From a virus, in IMG/VR virus record IMGVR_UViG_3300020039_000031: DNA of 64,000 nt, one strand, 5' to 3'. Numbering within the stretch: position 1 is the first letter of the stretch; each line of letters starts with the position of its first letter. The position numbers and the translations under genes were made by a program. The notes under the pieces were generated by a model, which searched no databases, was not told where the DNA came from, and worked only from the letters and a program-made list of their open reading frames with translations. This document shows positions 8,174 to 47,488 of this stretch, one piece after another.

Positions 8174-9163
8174 TTAGTAGACTTTGTCATAAAAAGTGAG
8201 TGTAAAGTATTGTCTATTCCGTTCATATCCTTTGCAGTAGATCACGTCGCCCTTATGTATCGGTTCCTTATCGAATACCCGATTAAAAACCGTGAAGCGG
8301 CTTTCAACGCCGCTTCCGATCGATTTTGTGATGACGGAATACCCAAACTTCTTTCCGTCACTTTTTCTTGCGAGAGGGAAAACATCGAGAACATAGAGCT
8401 TTCTTCTGTCCTCTTCCTTGCCGGATGTGTATCCGACATAGCCCATAGCGTCGTGGAAGTTTTGTATCTTCACAATGTCTGGCAAATCTTCCAGACGAGC
8501 CGCCATGATTGCATCTTCAACTCCGCGCATGATCGCGTGGATATCCTGAATGACGTAGCTTTTGGACTCAGCGCCATTCTTCGTTTTCCCGTTTGAGTAT
8601 TGTGCGATAATCTCACCGAACGGTGTTCCATCGACAGATTCCTTCTTGATCTGTTTGACCTCTCCGTCCTTTAACAACTGACTGAACACATCAATGATGC
8701 GAAGCAATTCTCTTTGATTGCCGAAGTCGGAAAAGAAATCCAGCTTAACGAGGATCTCAAGTTGGCGCGAGTTTATGCTTGTCTTTGACTTAAGATCGGC
8801 GACCAAATCAATGAATCGTTCATAATGATTCTTCGAGAGGATGAACATTTCATCTGCGAGCTGTTCGCTCATGTACTTGATCGATGTGACACCCTTTGCG
8901 ATGATGTTTTTGTCCCGGTCGAAGTAGTACTCACCTTTGGATACGCCCCATTTTGGCATCGTCACTTTGATCCCGACCTTTGTTGCGTATGCAGTACCGT
9001 TTCTGATATCCTCATCGTTTGCCGCATTGTTCAAAAACGACGTGACAAATTCCAAAGGATGATAGTAGCGATAATATCCACACAGATACCCTAGAAGGCA
9101 ATATGCGATTGAATGATTATCACGCATTCCACCATTACTGGTGGCGTAGACTATATCTTCCAC
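8174..9163 (-). CDS. dnaE: DNA polymerase III alpha subunit (DnaE-type), C-terminal part / exon 2
   Basis: NHSIAYCLLGYLCGYYRYYHPLEF matches the DnaE NKSHSAAYAL...AHYPAEF finger motif; the true 5' boundary is near 9130. Confidence 0.7.
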   Translation of the reverse strand: MEDIVYATSNGGMRDNHSIAYCLLGYLCGYYRYYHPLEFVTSFLNNAANDEDIRNGTAYATKVGIKVTMPKWGVSKGEYYFDRDKNIIAKGVTSIKYMSEQLADEMFILSKNHYERFIDLVADLKSKTSINSRQLEILVKLDFFSDFGNQRELLRIIDVFSQLLKDGEVKQIKKESVDGTPFGEIIAQYSNGKTKNGAESKSYVIQDIHAIMRGVEDAIMAARLEDLPDIVKIQNFHDAMGYVGYTSGKEEDRRKLYVLDVFPLARKSDGKKFGYSVITKSIGSGVESRFTVFNRVFDKEPIHKGDVIYCKGYERNRQYFTLTFYDKVY

Positions 9164-9934
9164 TTATTGTGGTCTTTGCGCTTCCGCAGGTAACTCATCT
9201 TCCTGCGTACTCCCTTGCGGGATAGTCGTTGCACTTTCAGATAGTTTTTTCCATACAAAGCCGCCTGCTGAACCACATCTGCCATTCAAGCAGTGTGAAA
9301 TCATTCCGCGCGATACACCTGTTTGCCTCGCGGCTTCGCATGTAGACTGAAATGTGGAAATATAGGAACCGTCCAAAGAATACTGGGCAATACGATTACC
9401 TCTAGGTTGTCTTAACTGGTGCTTTAGCGCATGTACATTATTGTCTGCGTATGAAGCCCACTCCAGATTTGAAACATGATTATTATACTTGTCTCCGTCT
9501 ATGTGGTTCACAGTCGGAAGATTATCGCTGTTTGGTATAAATACTTCAGCAACCAACCTATGAACCGGGCACACGTTCGAAGTATGCTCACGTCTTAGGT
9601 TTACTACATAATAACCGTCTCCGGACCGGTCTTTACCGATCGATTCTGTAACCTTCATTTCACCGCCGTGAAGTGTTCGTATTACCCCGCGTGAGTCTAA
9701 GATTGTGCGAGTGAGGCTCCTCACCCTACCATCGTCGCTCACCTCGTAGTATCCTTCATAGCCACTAATTGATTTCCACATCTTCACTCCTATCTGCTTA
9801 GCACAGGATTGCCCTCAATACAGTAGGGTTCCCCCGTTAGCATATCTTTTAGCCGCCATTTCCTGCGGTTACTCAGCTTCGTAAGATACACACCCCTGAG
9901 TAATAGGGTTCACAAAGAATGGGCTAATCATTAA
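9131..9934 (-). other. ~0.8 kb intervening sequence splitting dnaE (candidate group I intron carrying an HNH homing-endonuclease ORF); boundaries approximate
   Basis: the dnaE frame breaks exactly inside the conserved (A)GYGF|NKSHSAAY motif: exon 1 ends ...SANYQF(G) and exon 2 resumes (G)MRDNHSIAY. Confidence 0.4.
9164..9787 (-). CDS. HNH homing endonuclease (NUMOD4 + HNH_3 + C-terminal HTH)
   Basis: WKSISGYEGYYEVSDDGRVRS (NUMOD4), VNHIDGDKYNNHVSNLEW (HNH), C-terminal ARQTGVSRGMISHCLNG. Confidence 0.8.
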   Translation of the reverse strand: MKMWKSISGYEGYYEVSDDGRVRSLTRTILDSRGVIRTLHGGEMKVTESIGKDRSGDGYYVVNLRREHTSNVCPVHRLVAEVFIPNSDNLPTVNHIDGDKYNNHVSNLEWASYADNNVHALKHQLRQPRGNRIAQYSLDGSYISTFQSTCEAARQTGVSRGMISHCLNGRCGSAGGFVWKKLSESATTIPQGSTQEDELPAEAQRPQ

Positions 9935-12181
9935 CCCAAATTGGTAATTCGCACTGTCTTCTATAATCTGCAAGAACTCTTTCGCTTCGCTCTCCGCCTC
10001 GTCACGAGGTTTTGGAGATTTCCCGCAATAACCTTCAAGGATCGACGGAAGCGCCGCTGCCAGTCTGTCATGCTGTTTTCGTCCTATCGCACGACGCACG
10101 TTATCCGCCTCGCTGCCAGTCAAACCGCAAATCTGCTGCAGGAATTTGATCGTGTCCTCCTGATACACCAGATAACCAAGGTTATCCTTTAGGAGTTCGT
10201 CGATCATTTCGGACGGATTCTTATGCGGTTTTCGTGCAAGAAGCTGATCTCTGTATGACGCACCGGACGGACGTATGCAAGCCGTGACGAGCGACATATC
10301 GAAGATACTCGACGTTTTGAACTTCTTAAAACAGTCTGCGGCAAATGCTCCCTCAAACTGGAAGATCGCAGTCAGGTTTTTCTGCATATCCGCCCACACA
10401 TTTTGATCGTTCCAATCGATTTCGTATGTATGCGGATAGTTCACTCCGAGATATTCGCAAGCATCCCGTATAACCTGCACTGTCTTCAAAACAAGGAAGT
10501 CGTATTTCGCCGCTCCGACCTCATGAGCCTCTTCCATATCCATCATTAGACAGTTCTCTCCGTCCTTATCAAACATCCCATAGTTATCTATAAGCGTGAT
10601 AGGACTGATGACCATGCCGGCCGGATGAACGGACTGGGAAACCTTTGTGTTGAACAAACCATCGAAGTAGTAGAAAACCTGTGGGTACTTTTTCGCAAGC
10701 ACATCGTATTCAGGATAGCTTGTGATCGGCTTCTTTTCTTTCTTGGATAAGTTGTCGATTGGAGTCAATTCTGCCTTAATTTTGTTAACGATATCGTACC
10801 CATACGGATTATCATCAACCTTTTCGCCTTCCTTGTATCCGTGTTCCTTATTCCAGTCGTTCATCTTTGCACGGCAAACCTCGTCGATGACACCCTTGGT
10901 CTGTATCGTGCCGAACGAAGCGACGCGGCCTGTCTTGTCCGCGCCAAATCTTGATATAATATGGCGGAATATCTCCGGACGGTCTTCTTCAATGCAGTCG
11001 ATATCAATATCGCCTATTTCTGTTCTGTCTTCGTTGCAGAAACGCGAGAAAACCGTCTGCCATGTTTCCGGGTTAAGGTCAATGATGTCTGTGACATACG
11101 CCACTCTGGAACCGCCGACGGAGCCGCGGGCAGTACCGATCGCCATGCCATGGTTCTTGCACCAGCATATAAGCTCGGACATAGACAGCATAAAGCCATC
11201 CATTTTGAGCTTTTGGAAAACCCGCATTTCTTCATCGATCGCGGCACGGAACGCATCCTTTTGCTCCGGTGGAATAACGCCGCTCTCAAGTTTTTCAGCA
11301 AACATACGTTCTACTGTTTCTGTAAACTTCGCAGAGTCGGCTTCTCGTGATCCGTACAGGATCGGGTATTTAATGCTTTTATCAAGTTCAAAATTTTCAA
11401 CGAGTTCGTCAAGCATGTTCGTGTTGGTAATAGCCTCCAGATACACATCCTCTGGAAGCGCGTTCTGACGCCGGAACATTTCGACCAGCTCGTCGTATGT
11501 TTTATATGTAAGGTCGAACGCATCTTCATCGCCAAATGATTTGTGCTTTGCTTTCAGAAGGATCGACCTGCACTCCGCTTTATACGGAGAAGAATTGTGT
11601 GTATCTGTTCCTGCGATCAATGGAGTGCCAAGATCCAAAGATAGCTGAAACAACCTTTTATTAAACGCGATCTGATCTGGATGGTTATGGGCTTGCACCT
11701 CCAGGAAGTCGTACTTCTGTGCCAATGCCATATAGTACGGATGACTTTCGGACAACCTGTTCAACGGTGACGCCAGACACGCGCTCGTTGACAAGATATT
11801 ATCGGATATACCGAGAAACTCATCAAAACTAATTCGGTTTGTATAGTAGAAGTGTCGTTTATCGCACGACATTGATACCAGCCTGTTCAGCTCGCGTACA
11901 CCATCCAGATTCCTCGCAAGCAGAACTGTGTGGTAGTTATCTCTGACTTTTTCGTCGAGGTTTTCTGTCAGGTAAATCTCAACGCCGTGGATAAACTTGA
12001 TACCCTGCTTGTCACAGTACAACTTTTTGGAAACCCAACCCATTGGTTTCCCATGCTCTGTAGACGCAATCGCCTTAACGCCGTCACGAACTGCAAGATC
12101 AACGTAATCTTCAAACTTCGTGCAACTATCGAGAAGGCTGTAATCGCTGTGAACGTGATATGGTATGTAGTTTCCTGCCAA
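9869..12181 (-). CDS. dnaE: DNA polymerase III alpha subunit (DnaE-type), N-terminal part / exon 1
   Basis: PHP domain YIPYHVHSDYSLLDS; palm GTARGSVGGSRVAY...DIDIDC. Confidence 0.85.
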   Translation of the reverse strand: MAGNYIPYHVHSDYSLLDSCTKFEDYVDLAVRDGVKAIASTEHGKPMGWVSKKLYCDKQGIKFIHGVEIYLTENLDEKVRDNYHTVLLARNLDGVRELNRLVSMSCDKRHFYYTNRISFDEFLGISDNILSTSACLASPLNRLSESHPYYMALAQKYDFLEVQAHNHPDQIAFNKRLFQLSLDLGTPLIAGTDTHNSSPYKAECRSILLKAKHKSFGDEDAFDLTYKTYDELVEMFRRQNALPEDVYLEAITNTNMLDELVENFELDKSIKYPILYGSREADSAKFTETVERMFAEKLESGVIPPEQKDAFRAAIDEEMRVFQKLKMDGFMLSMSELICWCKNHGMAIGTARGSVGGSRVAYVTDIIDLNPETWQTVFSRFCNEDRTEIGDIDIDCIEEDRPEIFRHIISRFGADKTGRVASFGTIQTKGVIDEVCRAKMNDWNKEHGYKEGEKVDDNPYGYDIVNKIKAELTPIDNLSKKEKKPITSYPEYDVLAKKYPQVFYYFDGLFNTKVSQSVHPAGMVISPITLIDNYGMFDKDGENCLMMDMEEAHEVGAAKYDFLVLKTVQVIRDACEYLGVNYPHTYEIDWNDQNVWADMQKNLTAIFQFEGAFAADCFKKFKTSSIFDMSLVTACIRPSGASYRDQLLARKPHKNPSEMIDELLKDNLGYLVYQEDTIKFLQQICGLTGSEADNVRRAIGRKQHDRLAAALPSILEGYCGKSPKPRDEAESEAKEFLQIIEDSANYQFGLMISPFFVNPITQGCVSYEAE

Positions 12182-12223: not shown

Positions 12224-12926
12224 TTACTCCACCTTTACACCAATGAAGTCCATGACCTCTCTCATTCCGAGACCTCCCTGATCCCATGGGCGCATACAGT
12301 AGTCCCACAACTGTGGATGTGTTTGTTTTAACCTCTGAAATCTGTTCGGTTCTTTATCTCTGTGACATGCAAAACCGCAAAACACGCATCCTGTTCGATC
12401 ACAGCCGGTTGTCCTGAATTTCCCCTTACTGTTTTTCACGATCGATCCATATACAGATGCGTATGGAATGTTGTATGTATCGAGATATTCCAGCACATCC
12501 TGCTCTGTCCAGAACGACATCGGATTAGAGATTGGCCGCTCACCATCAAAAATGTTGCATCCGTTTTGCGTCCAGGAATTACGGCGCAGACTACTTTCAC
12601 AAGCCATCATTGCTGTGATCGGATGTAGCCCAGATTCTTTCTCAAACTTCTTTGCGGGGCGCTTTTTCATGACCTTGCAGCAATAATTGCTGATGGGAAT
12701 GTCGCTGTCCTTGAGCCATTTCCATTTCGCAACAGAAAAATGCCCGTTGTACTTTAGATCATGCTCGTTATCAGGCTCAAAACGCTGAGCTATCTTTCCG
12801 TCAGGACTATTCCGCGCCGTGTAGATCATAAACGCGACCTCTTTGCTTATCAGAGGATAACCCCATCGCTCTATGACTTTGCGAAAGTTCATTTCAGGTC
12901 TGACTACGATGACGTTTTCCGTAGAA
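12224..12926 (-). pseudogene. PP-loop ATP-pyrophosphatase / PAPS-reductase-family gene, C-terminal fragment (IS-disrupted)
   Basis: the frame stays open up to the IS left end; C-terminal Cys cluster GCDRTGCVFCGFACH. Confidence 0.7.
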
Positions 12927-13033
12927 TGTTTATGGTAATCTAAAAATAGGTCAGCTGGCTCATTGAAAAGTAGGTCACATCCAAGAAGTATGCTATCCTT
13001 GCTGTATCAAGCAGTAAGGAGGCGGAAAGGGAT

Positions 13034-14605
13034 GTGATCACATTGACCAGAAAGCAGCAAATCATCATGAGCCACCTGGCCGGGGTGAGCAACCGGCAGA
13101 TTGCATCGAAGATGCACATCAGCAAGGACACCGTGAACAAGTATGTGAAGGAGTACGATGCACAGCGGGCAGAATTGCTGACTCGGGATCCGGATGCAGA
13201 TCCAGAAGAGATTCTCCAGACCTTCGTAGAAGAACCGAAATACGACGCCAGTAACCGCACCCCGGTCATCGTAACGCCGGAGATGGAAGCCGCCGTGGAG
13301 CAGTGCCTACAGCTCAACGCTGTGAAGCGAGTGTCCGGGATGCGGAAACAGGCGATGAGGAAGAAGGACATCCACGAATACCTGGTTCGGGAAGGCTTTT
13401 CTGTAAGCTATTCCACGGTAAAACGGCTGGTGAACAGACTGGAAGCCCGTCATGAAGAGGCGTATATCCGGCAGGAATATCAGCCCGGTGAAACCTGTGA
13501 GTTCGACTGGGGCGAGGTCAAGCTGGATATAGCGAACAGCGGCTTCAAGAGATACCAGATGGCCGTATTCACAGCAGCATATAGCGGGGAGCGATTTGCC
13601 GTTCTCTACTGTTCACAGGATACGGCAGCATTCCAGGAATCCCATACGACCTTCTTTTCCTTCTGTCATGGAGCATTTCACACCATGGTCTATGACAACA
13701 TGAAGGTCGCCGTGCGGAAATTTGTTGGCCCGACAGAAAAGGAACCCACGAACGCGCTGCTGGAGTTGTCTCTGTATTATGGCTTCCAGTTTCGGTTCTG
13801 CAATGTACGCCGCGGGAACGAGAAGGGGCATGTGGAGCGCAGTGTGGATGTGGTTCGCCACAAAGCTTTCAGTGCACCCGGCTGTGACATTTTTGAATCT
13901 CTGGAGTCTGCCAACCGGTATCTGTTTGGCGTATGTGTCAGGCTGAACCGGGAAACGGCATCCAACGGCCAGGTTCCGGCAGAACTCTTTGAAGAAGAAC
14001 AGCGCTGTCTACTGCCGGCCATGCCGAGGTTCGAGTGCTGTATCCGGACGGAAAACAGCGTGGACAAGTACTCTACAGTCATGGTTGCCGGTAATCATTA
14101 CTCTGTGCCGGACACGCTTGTGGGAAAGCGTGTGCAGGTACGTCTTTACACGAGCAAGCTCGTTGTTTACTACGAAAACCGGATCGTGGCGACTCACAGC
14201 CGGAGTTTCCGCCCTCATGACTGGACGATTGACATCTATCACTATCTCCGAACCCTGAAACGCAAGCCCGGCGCTCTGCCCGGCAGCACGGCACTGCTGC
14301 AGTCCGACTCTGTTGTAAAGCAGATTTACGACACTTATTACACACAGGATGCTCGTACCTTCCTCGAAGTTCTGGAGGTCATATACGAGCTAGGCGCGGA
14401 TACTGTACAGCAGGCGCTTAAACGTATGGAGCGTCTGTCGCCGAAGGATATGAGCGCCCAAAAGATCCGCGTCGTATGCGAGAACACACTGCGTAAGGTG
14501 CCTCAGCAGCCGGGTTCTGACCATCTCAGTGAAAAAGCAAAAAGCACGCTCTCTCAATATGATCTGCTCAGACAACTGCAGATGGAAGGGAGTGTCGCTG
14601 TATGA
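13034..14605 (+). CDS. istA: IS21-family transposase IstA
   Basis: 523 aa, N-terminal HTH (QIASKMHISKDTVNKY); DDE region; overlaps istB by 4 nt. Confidence 0.8.
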   Translation: MITLTRKQQIIMSHLAGVSNRQIASKMHISKDTVNKYVKEYDAQRAELLTRDPDADPEEILQTFVEEPKYDASNRTPVIVTPEMEAAVEQCLQLNAVKRVSGMRKQAMRKKDIHEYLVREGFSVSYSTVKRLVNRLEARHEEAYIRQEYQPGETCEFDWGEVKLDIANSGFKRYQMAVFTAAYSGERFAVLYCSQDTAAFQESHTTFFSFCHGAFHTMVYDNMKVAVRKFVGPTEKEPTNALLELSLYYGFQFRFCNVRRGNEKGHVERSVDVVRHKAFSAPGCDIFESLESANRYLFGVCVRLNRETASNGQVPAELFEEEQRCLLPAMPRFECCIRTENSVDKYSTVMVAGNHYSVPDTLVGKRVQVRLYTSKLVVYYENRIVATHSRSFRPHDWTIDIYHYLRTLKRKPGALPGSTALLQSDSVVKQIYDTYYTQDARTFLEVLEVIYELGADTVQQALKRMERLSPKDMSAQKIRVVCENTLRKVPQQPGSDHLSEKAKSTLSQYDLLRQLQMEGSVAV

Positions 14606-15390
14606 CGAGCGCCAAGACGAACGCCGACATAAAGGAACTGTGCAAGATCCTGCGGCTGAACGGTATCGCGAAGAGCTTTGAGACCATGGAGCAGGAAGCT
14701 GCGGACTACGAGGATTTTCTGTACCGAATATTATCTCAGGAACTGCAGGAAGCCGAGGAACGGATGAAACAGTCCCGAATCCGACGTGCCCACTTTCCGT
14801 ACAAAAAATATCTGGAAGACCTTGAATTGGAATGCTTGCCAAGGGATATGCGCAAGCGGCTGCCGGAGCTCGCTGGATTGGACTTCATCCGCAACGGCCA
14901 AAATCTCATTCTCACCGGCAATCCCGGCACTGGAAAAACACATGTGGCCATTGGCCTCGGTATTCGAGCTTGCGAGCAAGGCTTCCGCGTTCTGTTCACC
15001 ACTGTTCCATATTTGGTAACAGAACTGAAGGAAAATGTGAATGCAAAAACGCTCAAGGCGTTTGAGAAACGGTTTGAAAAGTATGATTTGGTCATAGCCG
15101 ATGAGATGGGCTATGTCTCCTTTGACCGAGAGGGCGCAGACCTCCTGTTTACAAACCTCTCTCTGCGCGCCACCCAGAAATCCACGATTATTACATCCAA
15201 CCTGACCTTTGAGCGCTGGGACGAGATATTTGGCGACGCTGCCATTACCAGCGCCATTGTGGACAGACTCACCTACAAAGCCATCCTGGTAGATATGGAG
15301 GGCGACTCATATCGTTTCCGCGAGACCCTCCGTGCCAATGGAGCTTCTTTTGAACGACTGATGGAGGGTAAGAACGATGCCAAAGCTTGA
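14602..15390 (+). CDS. istB: IS21-family helper ATPase IstB
   Basis: Walker A GNPGTGKTH, Walker B VIADEMGY. Confidence 0.85.
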   Translation: MTSAKTNADIKELCKILRLNGIAKSFETMEQEAADYEDFLYRILSQELQEAEERMKQSRIRRAHFPYKKYLEDLELECLPRDMRKRLPELAGLDFIRNGQNLILTGNPGTGKTHVAIGLGIRACEQGFRVLFTTVPYLVTELKENVNAKTLKAFEKRFEKYDLVIADEMGYVSFDREGADLLFTNLSLRATQKSTIITSNLTFERWDEIFGDAAITSAIVDRLTYKAILVDMEGDSYRFRETLRANGASFERLMEGKNDAKA

Positions 15391-15724
15391 TTCTGAGCTG
15401 CGCCGCGAAGTGCAGAAATATCTTACGGAAATGAACGCCGCCAAATCTGAACGCGCCGACGTATGGTACTGGGTCCACCACGGAGTAGATATCTACGATA
15501 ATCCTTGGTTCTACTACAATGAAGCCGGCTGGCCGGCAGATCTCGTTACCGCTATCCGGATGGACAACGACCGCTTGGAGGAATACGAAGCTATGACCGA
15601 GGAAGAACGCCTTGAACTGAGCCGAGATCACTCTGAGGAGGCGCATGCCTTTGAGCAAAGCCTATGGGAACTGGAAGCCCTACCGAGACCGGCTGACCTA
15701 GTTTTGGATGGACATCTGACCTAA
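15377..15724 (+). CDS. third ORF inside the IS (possible passenger gene)
   Basis: 115-aa acidic ORF overlapping the istB stop and running into the right-end repeat region. Confidence 0.3.
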   Translation: MPKLDSELRREVQKYLTEMNAAKSERADVWYWVHHGVDIYDNPWFYYNEAGWPADLVTAIRMDNDRLEEYEAMTEEERLELSRDHSEEAHAFEQSLWELEALPRPADLVLDGHLT

Positions 15725-15860
15725 TTTTCGATGGCCGCGGAAACGCAGTCCTCACCAGGAGTACGCGCTCGCACCTATATTGCGGGCGCTTCTCCCGCCC
15801 TTGAGTGACCTAGTTTTCGATGAGCGCTTGACCTAATTTTCGATTGACATATACATAGAA

Positions 15861-16117
15861 CGCGCAAATTCCCTGACTTCCGGATACTCAAGACCTGTAT
15901 CTATGAATACAGCGGGGCAATCCGGATACACTTTCCTGACAATATCAAGCAGGACTGTGCTATCTTTGCCACCGCTGAAGGAAACATAGATTTTATCATC
16001 AAATTTGTTTGCAAACTCAATGATTCTGCTCGTTGTGACCTGAATTTTTCGCCATAAAGGCCAGCTCTGCATCTCATAGAGGTCTTCGCTGGTGAATTTT
16101 GGCTGTGATTTAGCCAT
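15861..16117 (-). pseudogene. PP-loop ATP-pyrophosphatase / PAPS-reductase-family gene, N-terminal fragment (IS-disrupted)
   Basis: PP-loop motif SFSGGKDSTVLL; the frame continues into 12926 once the IS and one TSD copy are removed. Confidence 0.7.
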
Positions 16118-16161
16118 GATTTTGGCTTTATCCTCACTTTCTTGTGAATAAAATCTATGTG

Positions 16162-16775
16162 TTACTGATTTGCTCTGAAAAATGCTTGCGCGAAGCCAGG
16201 AGGCGTCATCGCCCTCAGCTCCGCGTCTGTTGCTGGTTTATGGAATGATAACTGCGGGATGTTTTCCCTCGCAGATTTATGTAAAAATGCGAAGTTTGGC
16301 TTCTCTCTACCCTTTCGGGTGTACAACGGGAGTTTTGGAACGTCTTCCCAGTTCTCGTATACCCGCTCCGGTATGTTGAAATTTCCCCAAATATCCGTCG
16401 CTTTTGTCCACGGATCGCCATACCACCATGGCTGGAACGTCAATTTCGGAGCGCCCATATATTTGCGTAGATAGCCTCTTGGGTTCTCCATTGCCCACCA
16501 TACTGGATTACATTCACGGATGATCCGCAGGCAGGCATTAACGATCTCCATTCCTGCTTCTTCGTCACGCTCTCTCGGAGCTGCTACACAATTTAGAACA
16601 GAGAACTCGGTGCATGGCGGAGCCGCTAAAATACCATAAACCTCGCGGGGGGGGCGTAAGTACGCACATCATATTCTGGAAGTGTTATAATCCTGACATC
16701 ATAACCAGCTTCCGCATACGGCCTGCTCCAACTGCCAGTACCTCCGCATAAGTCTAAAATGATTCTGCTTATACT
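16162..16775 (-). pseudogene. DNA (cytosine-5)-methyltransferase, frameshifted at a homopolymer tract
   Basis: motif I DLCGGTGSWS in one frame; motif IV AAPPCTEFS and motif VI ENPRG in the -1 frame after a C8 run; no canonical ATG before motif I. Confidence 0.55.
16647..16654. repeat. G8 (C8 on the coding strand) homopolymer tract inside the methyltransferase gene
   Basis: cctcgc-GGGGGGGG-cgtaag; one extra base would join motif I to motifs IV-VI in frame. Confidence 0.9.
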
Positions 16776-16809
16776 TCGTCCCTCTTCGGAATCTGTTCAT
16801 TTTCCGTAT

Positions 16810-17799
16810 TCATTTGTAAACACACCTTTTTTCGTATAGATCCATGAACACTTCCTTACCTTGATCGACTGGGCTATCCTTCTCATTGAGCAAATTTCTC
16901 TGATCAAACAAAAACGAGACGTTCACATAACGTCTCAGCTTCTCTATATTATGATCGTCAAAGATTCGCACGTCTTTATCCAAGGCAAAAACCACGTCGC
17001 ACCCGAGTTTGGCAAGCAGCTTCATCTGAAACGGATTGACATGGCTTGTGAGTATCGCGCCACAGTTTTCTATTCCCCACGATGAAGCCTTTAACACGCT
17101 TTTACACCCCTCGAAAAGGATGATCTCGTGCTTTTCTTTGATGCTCTTTAGATTCTCTGCATACCCGTAGATTGTCTGCATCGTTCCCCATGGGAAAAAG
17201 TAGCAGTACTTACGCTGCCCCTTCTCCTTCCACTCCGGATCAAGAGCACGACCGCCCACATTGACGATTTTCCCTTCCGGATTGCGTATTGGATACACGA
17301 TCCGATCAGAGAAGCTATCGTATCTGACCTGAAAACGCTCCATGACATCCAGTGAAATGCCCTCGTCTTCCCAGACCTTGAGCTTCTCTGGCTTATTCTC
17401 GTACCGCTCCATATAGTTGTCTGGCAACACAGCCGCTTTTGACTGTCTTTCCCGCGAAATGGGCGGTGAAAACTTCTTGCAGGTCATCGTTGCCGACATT
17501 TTTTCTGATGGACGCATGATTTTCCCATCAAACCCGGCATAAGACTTGATCTTTTCCAGCGCATCACGGCGTGAGCACTTATCGTAAAAGCGTATAAAGG
17601 TGTATAGGTTACCGCCTATGCCTGATGAGAAATCGTAAAACGTACCTTCAGACTGTCTTACAGAAAACGATGGTGTTTTTTCCGGCGGGTAGGTGAATGG
17701 CGAGATTCCCCACCATTCATCCCCTCGCTGTTCGAGTTCCACATACTGTGATATGTATTCGATAATATCGATTTTCGATAAAAGCTCTGATAGATCCAT
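16810..17799 (-). CDS. DnaG-like DNA primase (Toprim)
   Basis: Toprim ILFEGCKSVL...ALDKDV; N-terminal EKTPSFSV...GIGGNLYTF resembles the primase zinc-finger region but lacks the cysteines. Confidence 0.65.
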   Translation of the reverse strand: MDLSELLSKIDIIEYISQYVELEQRGDEWWGISPFTYPPEKTPSFSVRQSEGTFYDFSSGIGGNLYTFIRFYDKCSRRDALEKIKSYAGFDGKIMRPSEKMSATMTCKKFSPPISRERQSKAAVLPDNYMERYENKPEKLKVWEDEGISLDVMERFQVRYDSFSDRIVYPIRNPEGKIVNVGGRALDPEWKEKGQRKYCYFFPWGTMQTIYGYAENLKSIKEKHEIILFEGCKSVLKASSWGIENCGAILTSHVNPFQMKLLAKLGCDVVFALDKDVRIFDDHNIEKLRRYVNVSFLFDQRNLLNEKDSPVDQGKEVFMDLYEKRCVYK

Positions 17800-17805
17800 A
17801 CTGTT

Positions 17806-19134
17806 TTAATATGGGCTGACAGGGATATGCTGTTTTGCCTCTTTGTATAAGATGTGATTCCCGTCGAACAACATATCTATATACTCAGACGACGTATGCT
17901 GCATCCCGTTTCGATTGAATACAACACGGAGCTTTTTGTTGCCACATTCCGGTCCGTCCGCTTCGATTTCCTCTTCTGTCTTGTCCGTTATCATGCAAAT
18001 TGTACTTGCATTCCTGACAATCTTGACGGAATCGGCCAATTTACCGGTTGATGTCGCTTGCGCAGCACCAATTCCAGCAATTTTCATGTCGCCACAGATT
18101 TTGTTCTTAATACAGTCTGTAAATGCTCCTAGTTCTGCATAGCTTGCGAACGCATCGGTTGTACCCTGCCCCTTGAAATAGTCAACGATCAGAACGTCGA
18201 TCCCTTGCGTATGCGCAACCTTTTTGACGGTTGTGTAGATCGTCTGCTGGTCGAACATCGGAATATACAAATGCGTAAATTTCCGTGTTTTCAGCCACTC
18301 ACGCGCCGTGTCGATCTTTGCCGCCTCATTTACGTCATACGCTCCGATTTCCAAACGCTTATACTCCACGCCTGACAGATGCGCCAAAATCCTTTTTGTG
18401 AAAAGCATATCGCTCAATTCGCTGTCTAAATACAAAACTGCTTTGTCCTGTTTTAGAAGATCGACCGCACAATTCAGGAGGAGCATTGACTTTCCCTGCT
18501 TCGCTTCCGCCGCGAATATCACAAGTTCTCCGTCTTCGATCGTTACATACTCATTCAGCGTTGGGAATTTGAAAGGGATACCGGCAAACCCTGTCCCCTG
18601 TCTTGACTGGATTTCTTTCCAGCACTGATCCACAACATCTGAATATGGAAGAATGTCATCGACGGTCGAATAACTTGTGAGGATCTCGTCGATCGTCGCG
18701 TACACCTGTTCCTGGATGTTTTCTGCGTTCCGATCACAACACAAACGCTGGCAATCGGACAGTTTTTGGTACATTTCCCTGCGAAATGCCGCATCAATCA
18801 CGTTTGAAACCAGGATTTTATACTCTTCCGGAGTCCTTCTGGCGAGCACATCGCTCATACTTATGAGCTCCTGCAGCATATCAATGGATAGTTCGCTTGC
18901 AAATTGCCGTGTGGATTCCTCGGTGTTCAAAACCTCGATGATGTTGTAAGGATCTACCGTTGATATTCCGCGCTTCGCAAGATTGCAGATCGCAGTATAA
19001 ACATACCTGTTGTCTTTGCGCGTAAAGTGTTCAGGCAGGAGCTGCTCAGAGTAGAACGACAGCTCCGGGTTATGTATGAGAGACGCAATGATACCGCTCT
19101 CGCTGTCTATGCTGTTGATATCATCAATTCTCAT
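17806..19134 (-). CDS. DnaB-like replicative helicase
   Basis: 442 aa, RecA-like core with AAEAKQGKS Walker A and LIVDYFK Walker B. Confidence 0.65.
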   Translation of the reverse strand: MRIDDINSIDSESGIIASLIHNPELSFYSEQLLPEHFTRKDNRYVYTAICNLAKRGISTVDPYNIIEVLNTEESTRQFASELSIDMLQELISMSDVLARRTPEEYKILVSNVIDAAFRREMYQKLSDCQRLCCDRNAENIQEQVYATIDEILTSYSTVDDILPYSDVVDQCWKEIQSRQGTGFAGIPFKFPTLNEYVTIEDGELVIFAAEAKQGKSMLLLNCAVDLLKQDKAVLYLDSELSDMLFTKRILAHLSGVEYKRLEIGAYDVNEAAKIDTAREWLKTRKFTHLYIPMFDQQTIYTTVKKVAHTQGIDVLIVDYFKGQGTTDAFASYAELGAFTDCIKNKICGDMKIAGIGAAQATSTGKLADSVKIVRNASTICMITDKTEEEIEADGPECGNKKLRVVFNRNGMQHTSSEYIDMLFDGNHILYKEAKQHIPVSPY

Positions 19135-19952
19135 AGTCCACGGACATTCCTCCTCTCATTCATACTTTCAATGTCATATTTGCAATGACGATTGACGCCG
19201 CATATCCAAAAGCATGAGAATAGATCCTGCTTCGGAGGGAACTCCGCTGTGTTCTCGATCTTTTTTACCGTGTCAATTACCCATTGTTTCGCCTCCTCGT
19301 ATGCTTCCTGCTTGAATGGCTCAACGATAAGCTCATTTGACCGGAAGCAGTTGAAGCATAAGTAATTCGGCAATTTCCCGTAATTCTGTTCAACGGCGAT
19401 CGAATAGACATAGAGCTGCCTGAGCATCTTATCTAGTTCTTTGTCCTTCAGTGTCGGCTTTGCCCGATTGCTCCTCGGACTCAATTTCCTGGATTTATGA
19501 TCGACGATATACAATTCGTCGTCCTTCTCTCCAAGATAATCAATAATACCGATCATCTGTATATCCGGTTCCCCATCTCTTTGGATGGAAAACCGGACCC
19601 TTTTCTCAATATCGATCACATTGAACGGAAGCGGGTCAAATGCCTGTAGGTAATTGACTCCGTTCTGAATGTATTTGGACAGGATTTTTTCTGACGGTCT
19701 TTTCCCAACGACCTTCTCCTGAAAATCCGCGATAAACTCCATGACAAGCTCAGACCGATCTTTTTTGCCGGTATAAAACTGTTCGAGCAAATGGTGCATG
19801 AACGAACCGAAGCTCGCGTAGAACTTATCCTCGTCTTGGAAGTTCAGAAGATAATGCAGAAACCATCTATATGGGCAATCCTCAAACGCTTCCAGCCTTG
19901 AGTAGCTCCATACCATGTCCTGAATGAGCGGCTTATAATCGATAGCCGTCAT
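19131..19952 (-). CDS. PD-(D/E)XK nuclease, Cas4/RecB-like with C-terminal Cys cluster
   Basis: IIDYLGE...IVDHKSRK (D..D/E.K) and C-terminal CFNCF...CFWIC...HC cysteines. Confidence 0.55.
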   Translation of the reverse strand: MTAIDYKPLIQDMVWSYSRLEAFEDCPYRWFLHYLLNFQDEDKFYASFGSFMHHLLEQFYTGKKDRSELVMEFIADFQEKVVGKRPSEKILSKYIQNGVNYLQAFDPLPFNVIDIEKRVRFSIQRDGEPDIQMIGIIDYLGEKDDELYIVDHKSRKLSPRSNRAKPTLKDKELDKMLRQLYVYSIAVEQNYGKLPNYLCFNCFRSNELIVEPFKQEAYEEAKQWVIDTVKKIENTAEFPPKQDLFSCFWICGVNRHCKYDIESMNERRNVRGL

Positions 19953-19963
19953 TTAACGACGCC

Positions 19964-20347
19964 TCAGAACGGCAGACGGCTATCAGAGCCAGACGCTTCC
20001 GGCTCTCCATCATCTACGCCACCGGCAGATCCGTTGTTTGAGCCTTTCGCATCCCGATCACTGACATCAAACGAAAAAACCTTGAAGTCAGTATAGGTGA
20101 CCTTCTTCTCCTTGTCGTATGTAGTGGAAACATCCACATCACCGAGCTTGATCGTATCTCCGACGCTCAAACGCGACGCCTTATCGGCGGCCGCCGTTCC
20201 GATGCACGCTACATATCCGCTGAAATCCTGGACGTATTCGTCCTCGCCGCGTTTCTTACGGCTGATGGAAATACGGATTTTCGTCATCGAGTTGGAGATC
20301 GGCTTGATTTCCCAGATTTTGCAGTAGGCTCCAGTACGAAAACCCAT
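19964..20347 (-). CDS. ssb: single-stranded DNA-binding protein
   Basis: OB-fold size, Gly/Asp-rich tail ending DSRLPF (SSB-type D-D-I-P-F tail). Confidence 0.6.
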   Translation of the reverse strand: MGFRTGAYCKIWEIKPISNSMTKIRISISRKKRGEDEYVQDFSGYVACIGTAAADKASRLSVGDTIKLGDVDVSTTYDKEKKVTYTDFKVFSFDVSDRDAKGSNNGSAGGVDDGEPEASGSDSRLPF

Positions 20348-20350
20348 CTC

Positions 20351-21028
20351 TCACGCCTCCTTCTTAAAAGTATTCTTGAAATCTTCAAGCATCTTTGCCG
20401 CTACCGCAGACTCTTTGATGTTGAAGTAATTTCCGCCCTTCACATACTTACTTGCAAAGTCGCGGATCTCTTCGGTGGAACCACCGTTCGAGATATAATC
20501 CTTGAATTCTTTATCGATGATATTGACGATCTGCTCTGCAAGCGCACGATCTTCCGCGGCTTCCGCCTCGCGCTGCTTGTTTCGCCAGTTGTCAGGATCA
20601 TCGTTCGGAGTGGCGACCCCGAAGTATTTCAGAAGGAAGTAGCGATAGGCATACGTCAGACCGGAACCAAAGCTCTGCGACGCATCGCTCTGCTGACCGG
20701 TAAGCGCCCACGGCACACGAATCACCTCATTCGGCGCGTCGTTATTGATCCAGACAAATTCCATGTCTGCGTTGACGAGGATCTCATTGACGATCTCTTC
20801 TTCGCCCTTTTTGATCTTCGTATATGTATAAGGCTCTACTGTGAATGTGTTCGGCACGATACTTGGGATAAGCGAGAGCCCATGCTTATCCATAACGCCC
20901 GTGATGCGAGCAAGTAACTCGTCATCTGTGACGTATTTGTACCCATAACCGCTGGCATTCTTCTGCACGACCTCGACGGCCTTGCGGACCTTTGCCAATT
21001 TCTGATAGATGTTCAGCGTTTCTGCCAT
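20351..21028 (-). CDS. ERF-family single-strand annealing protein
   Basis: N-terminus IYQKLAKVRKAV...YGYKYVTDDELL matches the ERF signature. Confidence 0.5.
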   Translation of the reverse strand: MAETLNIYQKLAKVRKAVEVVQKNASGYGYKYVTDDELLARITGVMDKHGLSLIPSIVPNTFTVEPYTYTKIKKGEEEIVNEILVNADMEFVWINNDAPNEVIRVPWALTGQQSDASQSFGSGLTYAYRYFLLKYFGVATPNDDPDNWRNKQREAEAAEDRALAEQIVNIIDKEFKDYISNGGSTEEIRDFASKYVKGGNYFNIKESAVAAKMLEDFKNTFKKEA

Positions 21029-21196
21029 TCAATTCCTCCAATACAAGAAATTTGTTATCTGATCGCCATGCTAACCAGCTACATTCTTCATGGAGCACCT
21101 TCCTTTCCGTTCTGCGTTTTTGATGCAGATAATTTTATTGTTTTGATATATGTAAAGAAAAGCACCCGCCGAAGCGGGTGTTTCGTTCACTCGTTA

Positions 21197-22183
21197 TTAA
21201 AGGATCACCCATGCTACTTTCCAGCGTTCATAATCCCGCATGTAGTCTCGTTCGATCTGACGTTGTTTTGCCTCAATCGTGTTTCTTCCGCTGTCCAGTT
21301 TATACGACTCGCCTTTTCGCCGCTCGACGCTGTGTTCCATAAATCTCGCGGCGTCTTCCGAGAAGTCTACCGGTAATCCTCGAACTTCCCGTTCATACAT
21401 ACGGTAGAAAATCCCGGATATTTGTACGCGATGATGGCTGAGCTTCATTTTTGTCCGCCCACTGTCTATCGCGTCCTTGGTGCGATGCGAAAGCTCGCCT
21501 CTTATACCTTTGCTTGTCGGTTTTGATGTAAAACCGCGAATCAACGTATCGCCTTGAGCTCTGATGCGCGTGATAATCTTCTTATCTGCCGTGTAATTAC
21601 TGTTCTTATAAACGAATGTCGGCAGTGTTGCCGCATTTCTAAAAGCAAGGAGTCCCTCTTCGTAGATGCGATATGTCTCGCCGCCAAATGTGACGGTTAA
21701 GTGATCCAGATCAACATCGGAGCATTTCACGCTCAGTATATCCTGTTCTCTGAGTCCGGCATACGCAAGCCAGTAGAAGCAGCGATGGATATTGCTTACC
21801 ATCTGCTCTGTTTCCGGCTCAAAAATTTCGTTCAGACATTGTTGCAGATGTACCGGGTTCTTTACGGTCATATTCCTGATATTGCCGAGGCCGAGCGTAT
21901 CAATAGACAAGATACCCCTCTGAACTGTGTTGTCCCCTTGACCGATCAGCCACTTGATATAGTTCCTGATAATGATCATGTAATTCATCCGAACTCGCTC
22001 GCGAAGTCCTGCGATCTGCTCGAATATGGGACGCAATTCTTCCGGTGACCTTGTTGAAAAATCGGCTCCCCATTCTTCCTCATATGGAGCCAGCGCCTCA
22101 AAAACCTGTTCGCATGTGCGCGCACGTTTTGAGTTCTCTATCTGTTCCGAGATATAGCGGCGCTTTTGTTCTTCATTGTACAT
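21197..22183 (-). CDS. MYNEE-paralog 1, divergent tyrosine-recombinase-like protein
   Basis: AGLREQDILSVKCSDVDLDHL resembles integrase box I; the C-terminal LSHHRV...IFYRMY is only loosely box II-like; paralog of 60346..61287. Confidence 0.3.
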   Translation of the reverse strand: MYNEEQKRRYISEQIENSKRARTCEQVFEALAPYEEEWGADFSTRSPEELRPIFEQIAGLRERVRMNYMIIIRNYIKWLIGQGDNTVQRGILSIDTLGLGNIRNMTVKNPVHLQQCLNEIFEPETEQMVSNIHRCFYWLAYAGLREQDILSVKCSDVDLDHLTVTFGGETYRIYEEGLLAFRNAATLPTFVYKNSNYTADKKIITRIRAQGDTLIRGFTSKPTSKGIRGELSHRTKDAIDSGRTKMKLSHHRVQISGIFYRMYEREVRGLPVDFSEDAARFMEHSVERRKGESYKLDSGRNTIEAKQRQIERDYMRDYERWKVAWVIL

Positions 22184-45234: not shown

Positions 45235-46374
45235 TTATCGCTTTAAGTCCTTTCGGATCATCGCAACGATATCCGCGTTGTATTTTTCTCCGATGTGCTT
45301 CACCATATCGTCGATCGCCTCGCGTTCCACATTGCGATAGTAGTTGCGAAGACCCTCCATAACTTGGATATCATGGAGATCCCACTCGATCCCGTGTTGC
45401 TTATCTGACACATACGCCGTGATCATTCCACGGAACTGCCTTCGCGCCTGAAGCCCGATGGTGATCTCGTTGTCTCTTGTAAGCATCAGACCGAGATTCC
45501 AGTTTGAGCCGGACGATGAGCCGTACCGCGTCTTTTTCTCATTCAAAACGTGTGGAGAGTTGAATTGCTTATGTACGTCCTTGATGAGTCGTTCAACAGC
45601 GTGGATATCAAAGTCATACTTCGACGATACGATCGTATCGTCAGAATACCTTGTGTAAACGAACTGCTGCTTCTGAAAATCCCGGAACGCATTGGCGAGC
45701 GTATAGTCGATGGGGATCATCAGGATGTTCGTGAGCGTCGGAGAGAGCGGAGTCCCCTGCGGGAGACCTCCATTCAAGAAACCGAGCTCCACAGCTTTTT
45801 CGAGCTGTTCCTTTCCCTGGTCGATCTTCATGACCTCCGAAAACGGGAAAATCATTGACAGCATCTGCATCGACCATTCCAGCGTCGTGTTGCCGAAGAA
45901 ATTTGATAGATCCAGCTTGCCAAACCACTTGCTTTCGTTGGCCTGATGGCGCTTAACGGCGTCGATCGTACAGCGCTTTTTGACATACGCAAACGCTGAC
46001 GTGTGATACAGCGCCCTGAAATCAGACTCGAACATCCGTTTCAGATCACGAAGTGCCGTCATCAAATCCTCACACGGCGCGTCGATCCTGCGAAGTCCAC
46101 CGGATTTCTTGGGGATATAGAATTCATAATAGAGTTCTTTGCGCGGCTGCTGACGGAGAAACTCCGTCCGTTCATTGAACTTTATGAGCTGTGAGATCAG
46201 ATATGGAACGCTGATCGTGCGCAGAAAATTGTTGCTGACATGCTCAACAGCGTATGTTCGTGTATTTGCCGTGCTGTCGTTTATCATCAGATTTCCGCGC
46301 CGCTTCTCAAATAAGAATTCCTCCAATGTAAGCTGATGATACATCGGAGACTGCATAACCGTTATATACGTCAC
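45235..46374 (-). CDS. reverse transcriptase (non-DGR, class unassigned)
   Basis: IPKKSGGLRRI (motifs 1/2), LDLSNFF (A), GLPQGTPLSPTLTNI (B'), YTRYSDDTIV (YxDD); GTG start with AAGGAGG RBS 7 nt upstream. Confidence 0.85.
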   Translation of the reverse strand: MTYITVMQSPMYHQLTLEEFLFEKRRGNLMINDSTANTRTYAVEHVSNNFLRTISVPYLISQLIKFNERTEFLRQQPRKELYYEFYIPKKSGGLRRIDAPCEDLMTALRDLKRMFESDFRALYHTSAFAYVKKRCTIDAVKRHQANESKWFGKLDLSNFFGNTTLEWSMQMLSMIFPFSEVMKIDQGKEQLEKAVELGFLNGGLPQGTPLSPTLTNILMIPIDYTLANAFRDFQKQQFVYTRYSDDTIVSSKYDFDIHAVERLIKDVHKQFNSPHVLNEKKTRYGSSSGSNWNLGLMLTRDNEITIGLQARRQFRGMITAYVSDKQHGIEWDLHDIQVMEGLRNYYRNVEREAIDDMVKHIGEKYNADIVAMIRKDLKR

Positions 46375-46682
46375 TCGATCACCTCCTTATTCAGTAGTGT
46401 GATTGTAACCTTTGTTGAGTATTGCTGACCGCTTGCCAGGTCGGCGCCAATTGCACGCTCGAGCTGGATGTCTGAGACCAGATCCATTCTGAGGATGAGG
46501 ATCGGTTCCAGAAAGCTGCAGTGCAATTGCTTCCCGTGCGTGTCTGCTGATGAGATCGCGATGACTGCAGTTGTACAACTCGGAGGTGGGTCGTCATCTG
46601 GCGGACTGATTTCGATCGAGTCTGACCATCGTCCCCTTGTCGCCTTACCTTTTCGATACTCCTGCGGAGCGCAAGAGTTCAC
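46371..46682 (-). CDS. possible small ORF in the RT leader (overlaps the RT start as GTGA)
   Basis: 103-aa ORF with weak coding character; the region may instead be non-coding RNA. Confidence 0.2.
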   Translation of the reverse strand: MNSCAPQEYRKGKATRGRWSDSIEISPPDDDPPPSCTTAVIAISSADTHGKQLHCSFLEPILILRMDLVSDIQLERAIGADLASGQQYSTKVTITLLNKEVIE

Positions 46683-46726
46683 TCTAACGAATGAAATACG
46701 TTACAATCTTGTTGGCGGTTTAAGGA

Positions 46727-47488
46727 TCACCGCAAACCGAGGAAACTGAAAAGATCGTCGTCGCTGTATACTTCCTCTGTATCATCGACCTCGAAAGCTC
46801 TTAACGTGTAGACGCCATCCGCTGTGATATCCACGATCAGATCTCCGCTGATCCGGCATTTTGGACGAAGACCAGCGCGATGAGCCGGTTCAGCAGACGA
46901 TCCGTAACCGTCTCTGCCTACCACATGAACCCTCGTTGACGCCTCCTTCGGCGTAGAAGTCCAATATGATACATAGGACGATGCCTCATAGCCCTCACGC
47001 CAGAATCGATTGCGGAAATCTTGTGACGGATGCGGACGAATGCCCTTCCGCTTGAACAGAGCAAAATTGCTTCCATACACATTAAAGATGTCATTGAATT
47101 CCGGCAGTTGAACGCCGCCGGATATTGCCGCGATCTCATAAGGCTCGAAGGCGTAAAGAAATCCGCGACGGTTCGCATAGTCGCCGTGAAGCACGTCGTA
47201 CTCGTGCATATTATGGAACCAGACCGCGTCCTCGCTGTTGAGGAACTGATAGATATTGGACAGTTCGTATGTATTGTTGCCGTACCATTTGTGATCGTTG
47301 ATCGGCGAACCGCGTTCGCGGGCGTCAAAAACCAACGAATCGAGCGCGTATTCCGATATAAAATCGCAATTTGGACTGGCTTTCAACCAAATGATCGGCA
47401 CGCCGGCTGCGTTCGGCGAGGGATCGCATGTGTAGCGTCCGAACTGAAGCCTTGTGCCGACCTTCAGGTCTTTGATTTTCCTATCCAT
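46727..47488 (-). CDS. C-type-lectin-fold (DUF1566/Lcl-like) protein
   Basis: FWREGYEASSYVSYWTSTPKEASTRVHVVGRDGYGSSAEPAHRAGLRPKCRI resembles the YWSST...AW.V.F..G...G.RPV.R signature. Confidence 0.4.
   Translation of the reverse strand: MDRKIKDLKVGTRLQFGRYTCDPSPNAAGVPIIWLKASPNCDFISEYALDSLVFDARERGSPINDHKWYGNNTYELSNIYQFLNSEDAVWFHNMHEYDVLHGDYANRRGFLYAFEPYEIAAISGGVQLPEFNDIFNVYGSNFALFKRKGIRPHPSQDFRNRFWREGYEASSYVSYWTSTPKEASTRVHVVGRDGYGSSAEPAHRAGLRPKCRISGDLIVDITADGVYTLRAFEVDDTEEVYSDDDLFSFLGLR

Follow-up and report, generated by a model that had tools for sequence, protein, structure and literature searches.

A small methyltransferase-like gene lies on the minus strand of a 64,000-nucleotide stretch of viral DNA (IMG/VR record IMGVR_UViG_3300020039_000031; the whole stretch is referred to here as the window), flanked by genes for a DnaG-type primase (16810-17799) and a PAPS-reductase-like protein. 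Its coding sequence is broken at a run of eight cytosines (C8), and one additional C would make it whole. We consider that the window probably carries the OFF allele of a phage modification gene that can be switched by slippage, a reading drawn from sequence comparison to which we give a probability of about 0.6.

In the ON state, the Ala-Pro-Pro-Arg between motifs I and IV would be written GCC CCC CCC CGC, a run of nine C's. One of these would have been lost in the window, presumably through slipped-strand mispairing during replication. As the frameshift separates the catalytic Cys and Glu motifs from the frame of motif I, the gene would be OFF, and the regain of one C, if this tract reverts at a useful rate, would restore it. 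The selective benefit would then probably be one of bet-hedging, with methylated progeny evading restriction that is blocked by modification and unmethylated progeny evading restriction that depends on it. The original prediction for this locus had been a candidate phase-variable or inactivated gene, a view supported by the occurrence of both on and off tract lengths of the family in nature.

Two Reading Frames and the Tract Between Them

The gene is spread over two open reading frames (ORFs). The N-terminal frame is open from 16796 to a TAG stop at 16628-16626 (feature 16626..16796, minus strand), runs through the tract and encodes ...RIILDLCGGTGSWSRPYAEAGYDVRIITLPEYDVRTYAPP, which aligns with residues 1-50 of intact homologs. 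It contains motif I, DLCGGTG (16754-16734), within the stretch IILDLCGGTGSWS at 16763-16725, and this S-adenosylmethionine-binding motif is invariant in alignments of 17 and of 45 homologs. The C-terminal frame, shifted by -1 relative to the first, is open from 16668 to a stop at 16164-16162 (feature 16162..16668, minus strand) and encodes ...PPREVYGILAAPPCTEFS...ENPRG...TPPGFAQAFFRANQ. Motif IV, AAPPCTEFS (16626-16600, with the catalytic Cys codon at 16614-16612), and motif VI, ENPRG (16488-16474), are both found here, with TPPGFA close to the C-terminal end. The first ATG of this frame, at 16551, opens an ORF of 129 amino acids. That motif I would stand in one frame and motifs IV and VI in the -1 frame had been proposed from the outset, and the frame and motif coordinates bear this out.

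The two open frames overlap only at 16629-16668, and the poly-C tract (16647..16654, minus strand; C8 on the coding strand, G8 on the plus strand, with an in-frame length of C9) lies inside that overlap. Adding one C yields a single ORF of 200-211 amino acids. The match to homologs extends up to Pro-Pro on one side and resumes from Glu-Val-Tyr-Gly on the other, which confines the missing base to the run and the two positions that follow it. Left unrepaired, the zero frame meets a stop 8 codons past the run. No second lesion, whether another stop or an indel, was found in either half of the window gene, and at every column that is invariant in the alignment of 17 homologs (which includes the repaired window sequence) the window residue is identical.

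Within the window, the tract is the sole G/C homopolymer of at least six: G/C runs of lengths one to five number 19025, 4640, 761, 134 and 13, respectively, with none of six or seven and one of eight. Its codons are rare in the long ORFs of the window, GCC making up 20% of Ala codons and CCC 12% of Pro codons. Nothing notable was seen in the other homopolymers of the window (four A8 runs).

Homopolymers are a classic site of indel errors, and a sequencing error had been named early on as the other way to explain the break; the true tract would then be C9 and the gene intact. This is very improbable. An assembly error is unlikely because contig NODE_527 of ENA record ERZ3810914 (SPAdes naming, coverage 17.6) is 100% identical to window positions 15856-21799 (5,944 nucleotides), C8 included; this short-read contig was deposited separately, and its sample may be the same as that of the window. 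Consensus indel errors at an 8-mer are uncommon in short-read data of this sort, an identical primase is recorded on a JGI contig (119,578 bp) and on the ENA contig, and out-of-frame tracts recur in many assemblies of related lineages.

Searches aimed directly at the locus returned little. The 129-residue C-terminal ORF has no exact protein record, a megablast of positions 15800-18000 against GenBank phages gave no match, and neither did a gapped DNA pattern around the tract searched in IMG/VR. On a public contig of the same phage, no gene is called at this locus.

The Nearest Relatives and the Origin of the Frameshift

The most informative relative is the locus L248 (Logan contig SRR30535877_94520, protein P0367), which was not the representative of its 90% cluster and came to light through a cluster look-up. 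P0367 is identical to the repaired window protein at 190 of 200 residues, with a nucleotide identity of 85%. Its tract reads GTGCGTACTTAC GCC CCC CCC CGC GAG GTT TAT GGT ATT TTA GC, a C9 run that is in frame (A-P-P-R-E-V-Y-G), and the bases on either side of the tract are identical to those of the window. The claim that C8 separates the two frames and that one more C would fuse them into an ORF of about 200 amino acids is supported by a natural sequence, as L248 carries exactly this C9 allele on the same flanks. Since L248 has C9 in frame on identical flanks, the window allele would most simply be a C9-to-C8 contraction. An alternative origin, in which the base was lost from the codon after Pro-Pro (AAC, GAC or GCT in relatives), is disfavoured by the C9 followed by GC GAG of L248 on identical flanks.

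Between the window and L248, nonsynonymous divergence (pN) is 0.03 and synonymous divergence (pS) 0.56. Close relatives including L245 and L001 give pN of 0.06-0.08 and pS of 0.74-0.92 in both halves of the gene; for L245 and L001 alone, the values are 0.06 and 0.74-0.80. Judged by these ratios, both halves are under strong purifying selection.

A sister lineage represented by three assemblies (L244, L245 and L246; primase 88% identical) has C7 (L245:4710) and then GCT GAG. With C8 it would read A-P-P-A-E-V, and only the 129-residue C-terminal ORF is called as a gene there; this allele is an independent off contraction at the same codons as in the window. L001, L234 and L247 carry C8 followed by AAC and are in frame, and L231-L233 have no run at the tract site. 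Among more distant relatives, an in-frame C8 is seen in L072 and L073, and L040 has one C too many, C9 instead of the C8 that its frame requires. The distances among the four close lineages are roughly equal (20-26 differences in 200 amino acids), with synonymous sites near saturation. A frameshift ancestral to the window and L245 and maintained since then was rejected, given that L248 is in frame and that the four lineages are equidistant.

These comparisons also bear on whether the gene might be expressed from the C8 template by recoding, either through -1 ribosomal frameshifting or through slippage of RNA polymerase that adds a C. The zero-frame GCC CCC CCC is formally an X XXY YYZ heptamer (C CCC CCC), a -1 slip on it would give A-P-P-R-E-V, the same product as C9, and two diverged lineages (the window and L245) need this same -1 correction in a gene under strong purifying selection. 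However, the requirement for a frameshift is not conserved, because the closest relative L248 needs none and neither does L001, and the shifts that L040 and the poly-G alleles described below would need differ in size and direction. Nor is there a downstream stimulatory structure, the 87 nucleotides after the tract folding worse than their shuffles (z = +1.7), or an internal Shine-Dalgarno sequence upstream of the tract. To our knowledge, heptamers of C only are not among the efficient frameshift sites. Programmed -1 frameshifting was rejected on the missing structure and the lack of conservation in orthologs, and recoding as a whole, with transcriptional slippage counted in as a way to leaky expression, is quite improbable.

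Homopolymer Tracts Across the Gene Family

The behaviour of the tract was followed across the family in 219 loci, taken from collections of viruses, genomes and metagenomes (148 in a first set, the remainder added later). In most of them, motif I and motif IV are 129 nucleotides apart. Frameshifts between the two motifs occur in 10 of the first 148 loci and in 12 of the 219, every one at a G/C run of at least 8; the exception, found later, is the L244-L246 lineage, which is off at C7. In related phages and prophages, this inter-motif segment contains G/C runs of 7-13, with lengths both in and out of frame. With each 95% lineage represented once (161 lineages), 14 runs of at least 8 were found in 113 kb of the gene and 6 in 706 kb of flanking DNA, where 0.96 would be expected in the gene (Poisson P = 3e-12), an enrichment of about 15-fold in the family over flanking phage DNA. 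Two of the 6 flank runs are G10 runs in a second methyltransferase gene (L030 and L032, below), and another is the G9 of L097. Part of the excess is compositional, since the conserved Pro-Pro and Ala-Pro-Pro-Cys ease the formation of C runs. The poly-G tracts are not explained by Pro-Pro composition.

The clearest case of variation is a homolog in Flavonifractor/Pseudoflavonifractor prophages, in which V-A-G-G-Y is written GTA GCG GGG GGG (G...) TAC and the poly-G lies about 44 nucleotides after the motif I Asp codon (L036-L039, L098, L099, L218-L222 and L235-L243). Across many samples and one isolate genome, G8, G9 and G11 alleles are out of frame and G10 is in frame; the isolate host, Pseudoflavonifractor sp. 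Marseille-P3106, carries G11. The flanks of G10 and off alleles are near-identical (mismatches 0/313 and at most 2/560). A slightly different sublineage has G7, which is in frame. The in-frame products are P0222 (24 contigs read; listed in 36 blocks) and P0229 (6 contigs). A C-terminal fragment of 145 amino acids called from off alleles, P0232 (WP_198016083.1), is recorded on 753 contigs; off alleles thus seem far commoner in this prophage, with 753 fragment contigs as against tens for the full-length forms. The same on/off pattern is seen in a second lineage with longer Gly runs (P0218, P0220, P0221 and P0223).

Tracts are also found beyond the family gene itself. In the same phage regions, a second, different and unrelated-looking methyltransferase gene of PPC type (…GHPEWH…FPPCT…) has G10 between motifs I and IV, out of frame (L030:2423 and L032:432). 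L032 thus has a pair of methyltransferase genes, each of them off at a poly-G run (G10 and G13), and L244 has an intact, run-free copy of the second PPC-type family downstream of its methyltransferase gene. Further long runs were noted close to genes for DNA modification or regulation: G9 at L097:2968, 11 nucleotides upstream of the ATG of the family gene; C11 at L072/L073:5611, where the gene after an N6/N4-type methylase begins; G8 at L163:2023, in frame within an MT-A70 (DPPW) methyltransferase; and G10 at L205:899, just upstream of an XRE-type regulator gene.

As run lengths in and out of frame both occur in related phages and prophages, the family behaves as a contingency locus, a conclusion that comparison of alleles makes well supported for the family and plausible for the window tract itself. 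A broader proposal, which we put forward tentatively and think somewhat doubtful, is that phages and prophages of gut Clostridia share a widespread class of contingency loci in their small methyltransferases of C5-type fold; every phage population could then contain methylating as well as non-methylating genomes and thereby hedge between modification-blocked and modification-dependent restriction. Under such a proposal, G/C runs may have originated on repeated, independent occasions, in the loop that joins motif I to motif IV, at the APPC motif, in the ribosome-binding region and in the second, co-resident methyltransferase family, and the mostly-off state in lysogens would be the resting state of the switch.

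Switch or Decay

Plain decay is the serious rival to a switch. Here, a one-way loss from C9 to C8 under relaxed selection would have inactivated the gene, and the tract would be a mutational weak spot rather than an evolved switch. We think this unlikely, yet a number of observations fit it. The adjacent PAPS-reductase-like gene has been destroyed by insertion of an IS21-family element, which fits relaxed selection in this region. Only the off state has been seen for the window lineage and likewise for the L245 lineage, off alleles dominate in the Flavonifractor lineage, and the case for selection acting on the tract itself is statistically weak.

The insertion next door counts against a switch, as do several properties of the tract and its product. 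C8 or C9 is short relative to a classical contingency tract. No run of identical codons in the gene is longer than the four of Y-A-P-P that three lineages have in common, but chance alone predicts about 0.6 runs of four identical codons per gene; conservation of GCC-CCC-CCC was therefore rejected as proof of selection on the tract, not being significant alone, and taken with the conserved Pro-Pro and Ala-Pro-Pro-Cys, which favour C runs, it appears only suggestive. At a nucleotide divergence of 15% from the C9 relative L248, the window could carry a contraction that is old and fixed. No length polymorphism was seen in the window lineage, for which there is one other contig in the collections, identical, with C8 and possibly from the same sample. 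Finally, the match of the repaired ORF to the C5 methyltransferase profile of Pfam (PF00145) reaches 18.7 bits against a cut-off of 22 and covers only profile positions 61-118, the region of motifs IV-VI.

Against decay, neither half of the gene has a second lesion and pN/pS is very low. Tracts are enriched 15-fold in the family, recur at three different sites and reappear in another methyltransferase family. The Flavonifractor-prophage homolog has lengths both in and out of frame on backgrounds that are identical, and reversion of a C8 tract would, given a large phage population, be much more frequent than that of a point lesion. We favour a switchable gene caught in its OFF state.

A Putative Unusual Translation Start

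The absence of an ATG before motif I had been pointed out in the original prediction and read as a sign that the gene may be decaying. The observation holds and extends to GTG and TTG, neither of which is found upstream of motif I in the window. However, the closest clade, including the intact L248, L001 and L231, likewise lacks all three, and since intact relatives share this feature, the missing ATG is not evidence of decay. An in-frame TGA is present as well (16799-16797), although its distance had been misjudged: it is 14 codons upstream of the motif I Asp and 10 upstream of RIILDL.

Gene callers start the genes of the closest clade at a TTG inside motif I, which is an artificial start. 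A candidate start is found three codons before I-I-L-D, where the window, L001 and L245 have ATA, L248 has ATC, and P0009 and P0012 have ATG (M-x-K-I-I-L-D); in L231, the ATA is one codon further upstream. Comparison with orthologs had been suggested as a check on the native start codon; the closest-clade orthologs have ATA or ATC in the position where those other members start with ATG. A GGAG-like box lies 7-9 nucleotides upstream of the ATA or ATC in this clade and resembles the ribosome-binding sites of neighbouring genes. In the window, the putative translation start (16770..16784, minus strand) comprises GAGGG at 16784-16780, a spacer of 7 nucleotides and ATA at 16772-16770. A weak, non-canonical start is thus probably a conserved feature of the clade.

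The Encoded Protein

The repaired ORF matches PHROG 757, annotated as 'DNA methyltransferase', over residues 10-211 and across the junction (E 3e-37), and public data hold about 6,800 intact homologs of approximately 205 amino acids, with which it aligns free of gaps. A few close homologs carry a precomputed PF00145 match, an NCBIfam scan gave no family match, and a profile search of PDB sequences detected no solved relative.

An AlphaFold model of the homolog P0004 (84% identical) has a pLDDT of 89.3 and a pTM of 0.87, and in a Foldseek search of the PDB with this model, the best 50 of 52 matches at E of at most 0.001 were all C5 methyltransferases. These include M.HaeIII, M.HhaI, DNMT3A/B, DNMT1 and DNMT2, with a best E of 2e-6 and a query-normalized TM-score (TMq) of 0.62; normalized to the target, the TM-score is only 0.42-0.44. 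Residues P60, C62, E104, N105 and P106 are invariant in both alignments (17 and 45 homologs), and P61 is invariant in the 17 homologs and at least 90% conserved in the 45.

Like M.HhaI and M.HaeIII (PF00145), the window protein has the fold of the catalytic domain with motif I (GxG), motif IV (Pro-Cys) and motif VI (Glu-Asn-x). Unlike them, it has PPCTEFS rather than PCQxFS in motif IV and ENP rather than ENV in motif VI, and it is about 120 residues shorter, without the large target-recognition domain. A separate domain of that kind between motifs VIII and IX was not found in the approximately 205 amino acids, compared with 324-327 in M.HaeIII and M.HhaI; a conserved segment of at most 50 residues (KPNFAxLHKSA) could at most be a candidate recognition part. 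The motifs I, IV (PPC) and VI (ENP), the fold matches and the low target-normalized TM-score lead to the assignment: the product is predicted to be the catalytic core of a C5 methyltransferase without a large target-recognition domain. The earlier identification as a C5-cytosine methyltransferase therefore holds for fold and motifs, but not for the Pfam threshold or for a canonical target-recognition domain.

The protein would be expected to methylate DNA. Family members are present in cultured phages of Tetrasphaera, Mycobacterium, Bacteroides, Vibrio and Salmonella (9NA), where they are annotated by similarity only, and we found no characterized member. These proteins of 205 amino acids with a C5-type fold and without a canonical recognition domain make up a large, uncharacterized family.

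Relation to Known Phase-Variable Systems

In bacterial phase-variable methyltransferases, such as those encoded by Type III mod genes, changes in repeat length by slipped-strand mispairing turn the gene ON or OFF (PMC5909438, PMC13076061, PMC12707154). The phasevarions of Haemophilus, Neisseria, Helicobacter and Campylobacter resemble the window gene in that a simple sequence repeat within the methyltransferase ORF sets the frame. Their enzymes are chromosomal N6-adenine methyltransferases of restriction-modification systems in Gram-negative pathogens and regulate host genes, whereas the window gene is a phage-borne orphan of 205 amino acids with a C5-type fold, belonging to phages of gut Clostridia. 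The repeats differ as well, being often units of 4-5 nucleotides or longer tracts in phasevarions and C8/C9 here.

The closest mechanistic model is a phage gene. In agt of phage T2, frameshifts in an A9 run revert about 1000-fold faster than point mutations, and experiments demonstrated a reversible contingency locus that hedges between TgvAB, which attacks modified DNA, and McrA/BC, which attack unmodified DNA (Gomez, Barrick and Waters, bioRxiv 10.1101/2025.10.21.683753). Both cases involve a homopolymer in a phage gene for a DNA-modifying enzyme. The T2 enzyme is a glucosyltransferase of a lytic coliphage, its tract is an A run and the evidence is experimental, whereas the window gene is methyltransferase-like, has a C run and is known from comparative sequence analysis only.

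Another phage precedent is the methylase of phage BPP-1, for which citing papers describe a variable G run within the ORF and proposed frameshift control of expression (Liu et al. 2004, cited in PMC4791379 and 10.1101/2025.10.21.683753). According to these accounts, the likeness lies in a variable G run inside a phage methylase ORF, but the enzyme is described as an adenine (or 'thymine') methylase, probably of a different family, and the host is Gram-negative. With T2 agt and the BPP-1 methylase as precedents, switching in phage genes is not unprecedented, which qualifies the original suggestion that it would be notable in a phage context. Campylobacter Fletchervirus phages are likewise reported to have hypermutable G7-G11 tracts that produce on/off subpopulations (Sorensen et al. 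2021, cited in PMC12823448); as reported there, these tracts are in genes for receptor-binding proteins and alter host recognition, in contrast to the window tract in a DNA-modification gene. New here are the family, a minimal protein of C5-type fold, its occurrence in phages whose hosts are gut Clostridia, and tracts that recur in many lineages.

If the tract switches, the methylation state of the phage DNA would be both heterogeneous and heritable within one population, and the set of hosts and defence systems that the phage overcomes would change. Phage contingency loci would then extend from laboratory coliphages (T2 agt) to abundant uncultured gut phages, and to methyltransferases. Because gene callers skip or fragment such genes, phage methyltransferase repertoires in metagenomes may be underestimated.

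Genomic Setting

The window represents the replication and nucleotide-metabolism region of a large phage; related primases are found on contigs of 112-122 kb. Its genes include those for DNA polymerase III alpha, NrdD, PhoH, dUTPase, DnaB, primase, Erf and a PD-(D/E)XK exonuclease, as well as an RNA ligase/kinase/phosphatase, a reverse transcriptase and tyrosine recombinases.

The PAPS-reductase-like (PP-loop) gene immediately downstream of the methyltransferase gene is split by the IS21-family element, with the N-terminal 94 amino acids at 15833..16117 (minus strand) and the C-terminal part at 12224-12892; in L248 it is intact (279 amino acids). The element (about 12930-15855) encodes IstA (13034-14605) and IstB (14602-15390) and has multiple terminal repeats, with TGACCTARTTTTSGAT at 15694-15732 and 15806-15844 and an inverted copy at 12938-12958. 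It also has an extra ORF of 115 amino acids (15377-15724) without a Pfam match. NODE_527 ends at the boundary of the element, as expected of short-read assembly at a repeat. Functional coupling of the methyltransferase with the downstream PAPS-reductase-like gene was considered and rejected, as a PP-loop motif is found downstream in 1 of 190 family loci.

The DNA polymerase III alpha gene (8174-12181) is likewise interrupted: an HNH/NUMOD homing-endonuclease gene (9164-9787) stands between its two parts at 9869-12181 and 8174-9163, and the same layout is seen in L248. Further along, a reverse-transcriptase gene (45235-46374) lies next to an ORF with a Hoc-like Ig domain (46727-47488), and this region (45235-47488) may be a candidate diversity-generating retroelement. 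In the window, L001, L244 and L248, the slot between the primase and polymerase III alpha genes carries differing DNA-modification cargo: the methyltransferase alone, the methyltransferase with the PAPS-reductase-like gene, or the methyltransferase with a second methyltransferase and an integrase. This slot looks like a variable island.

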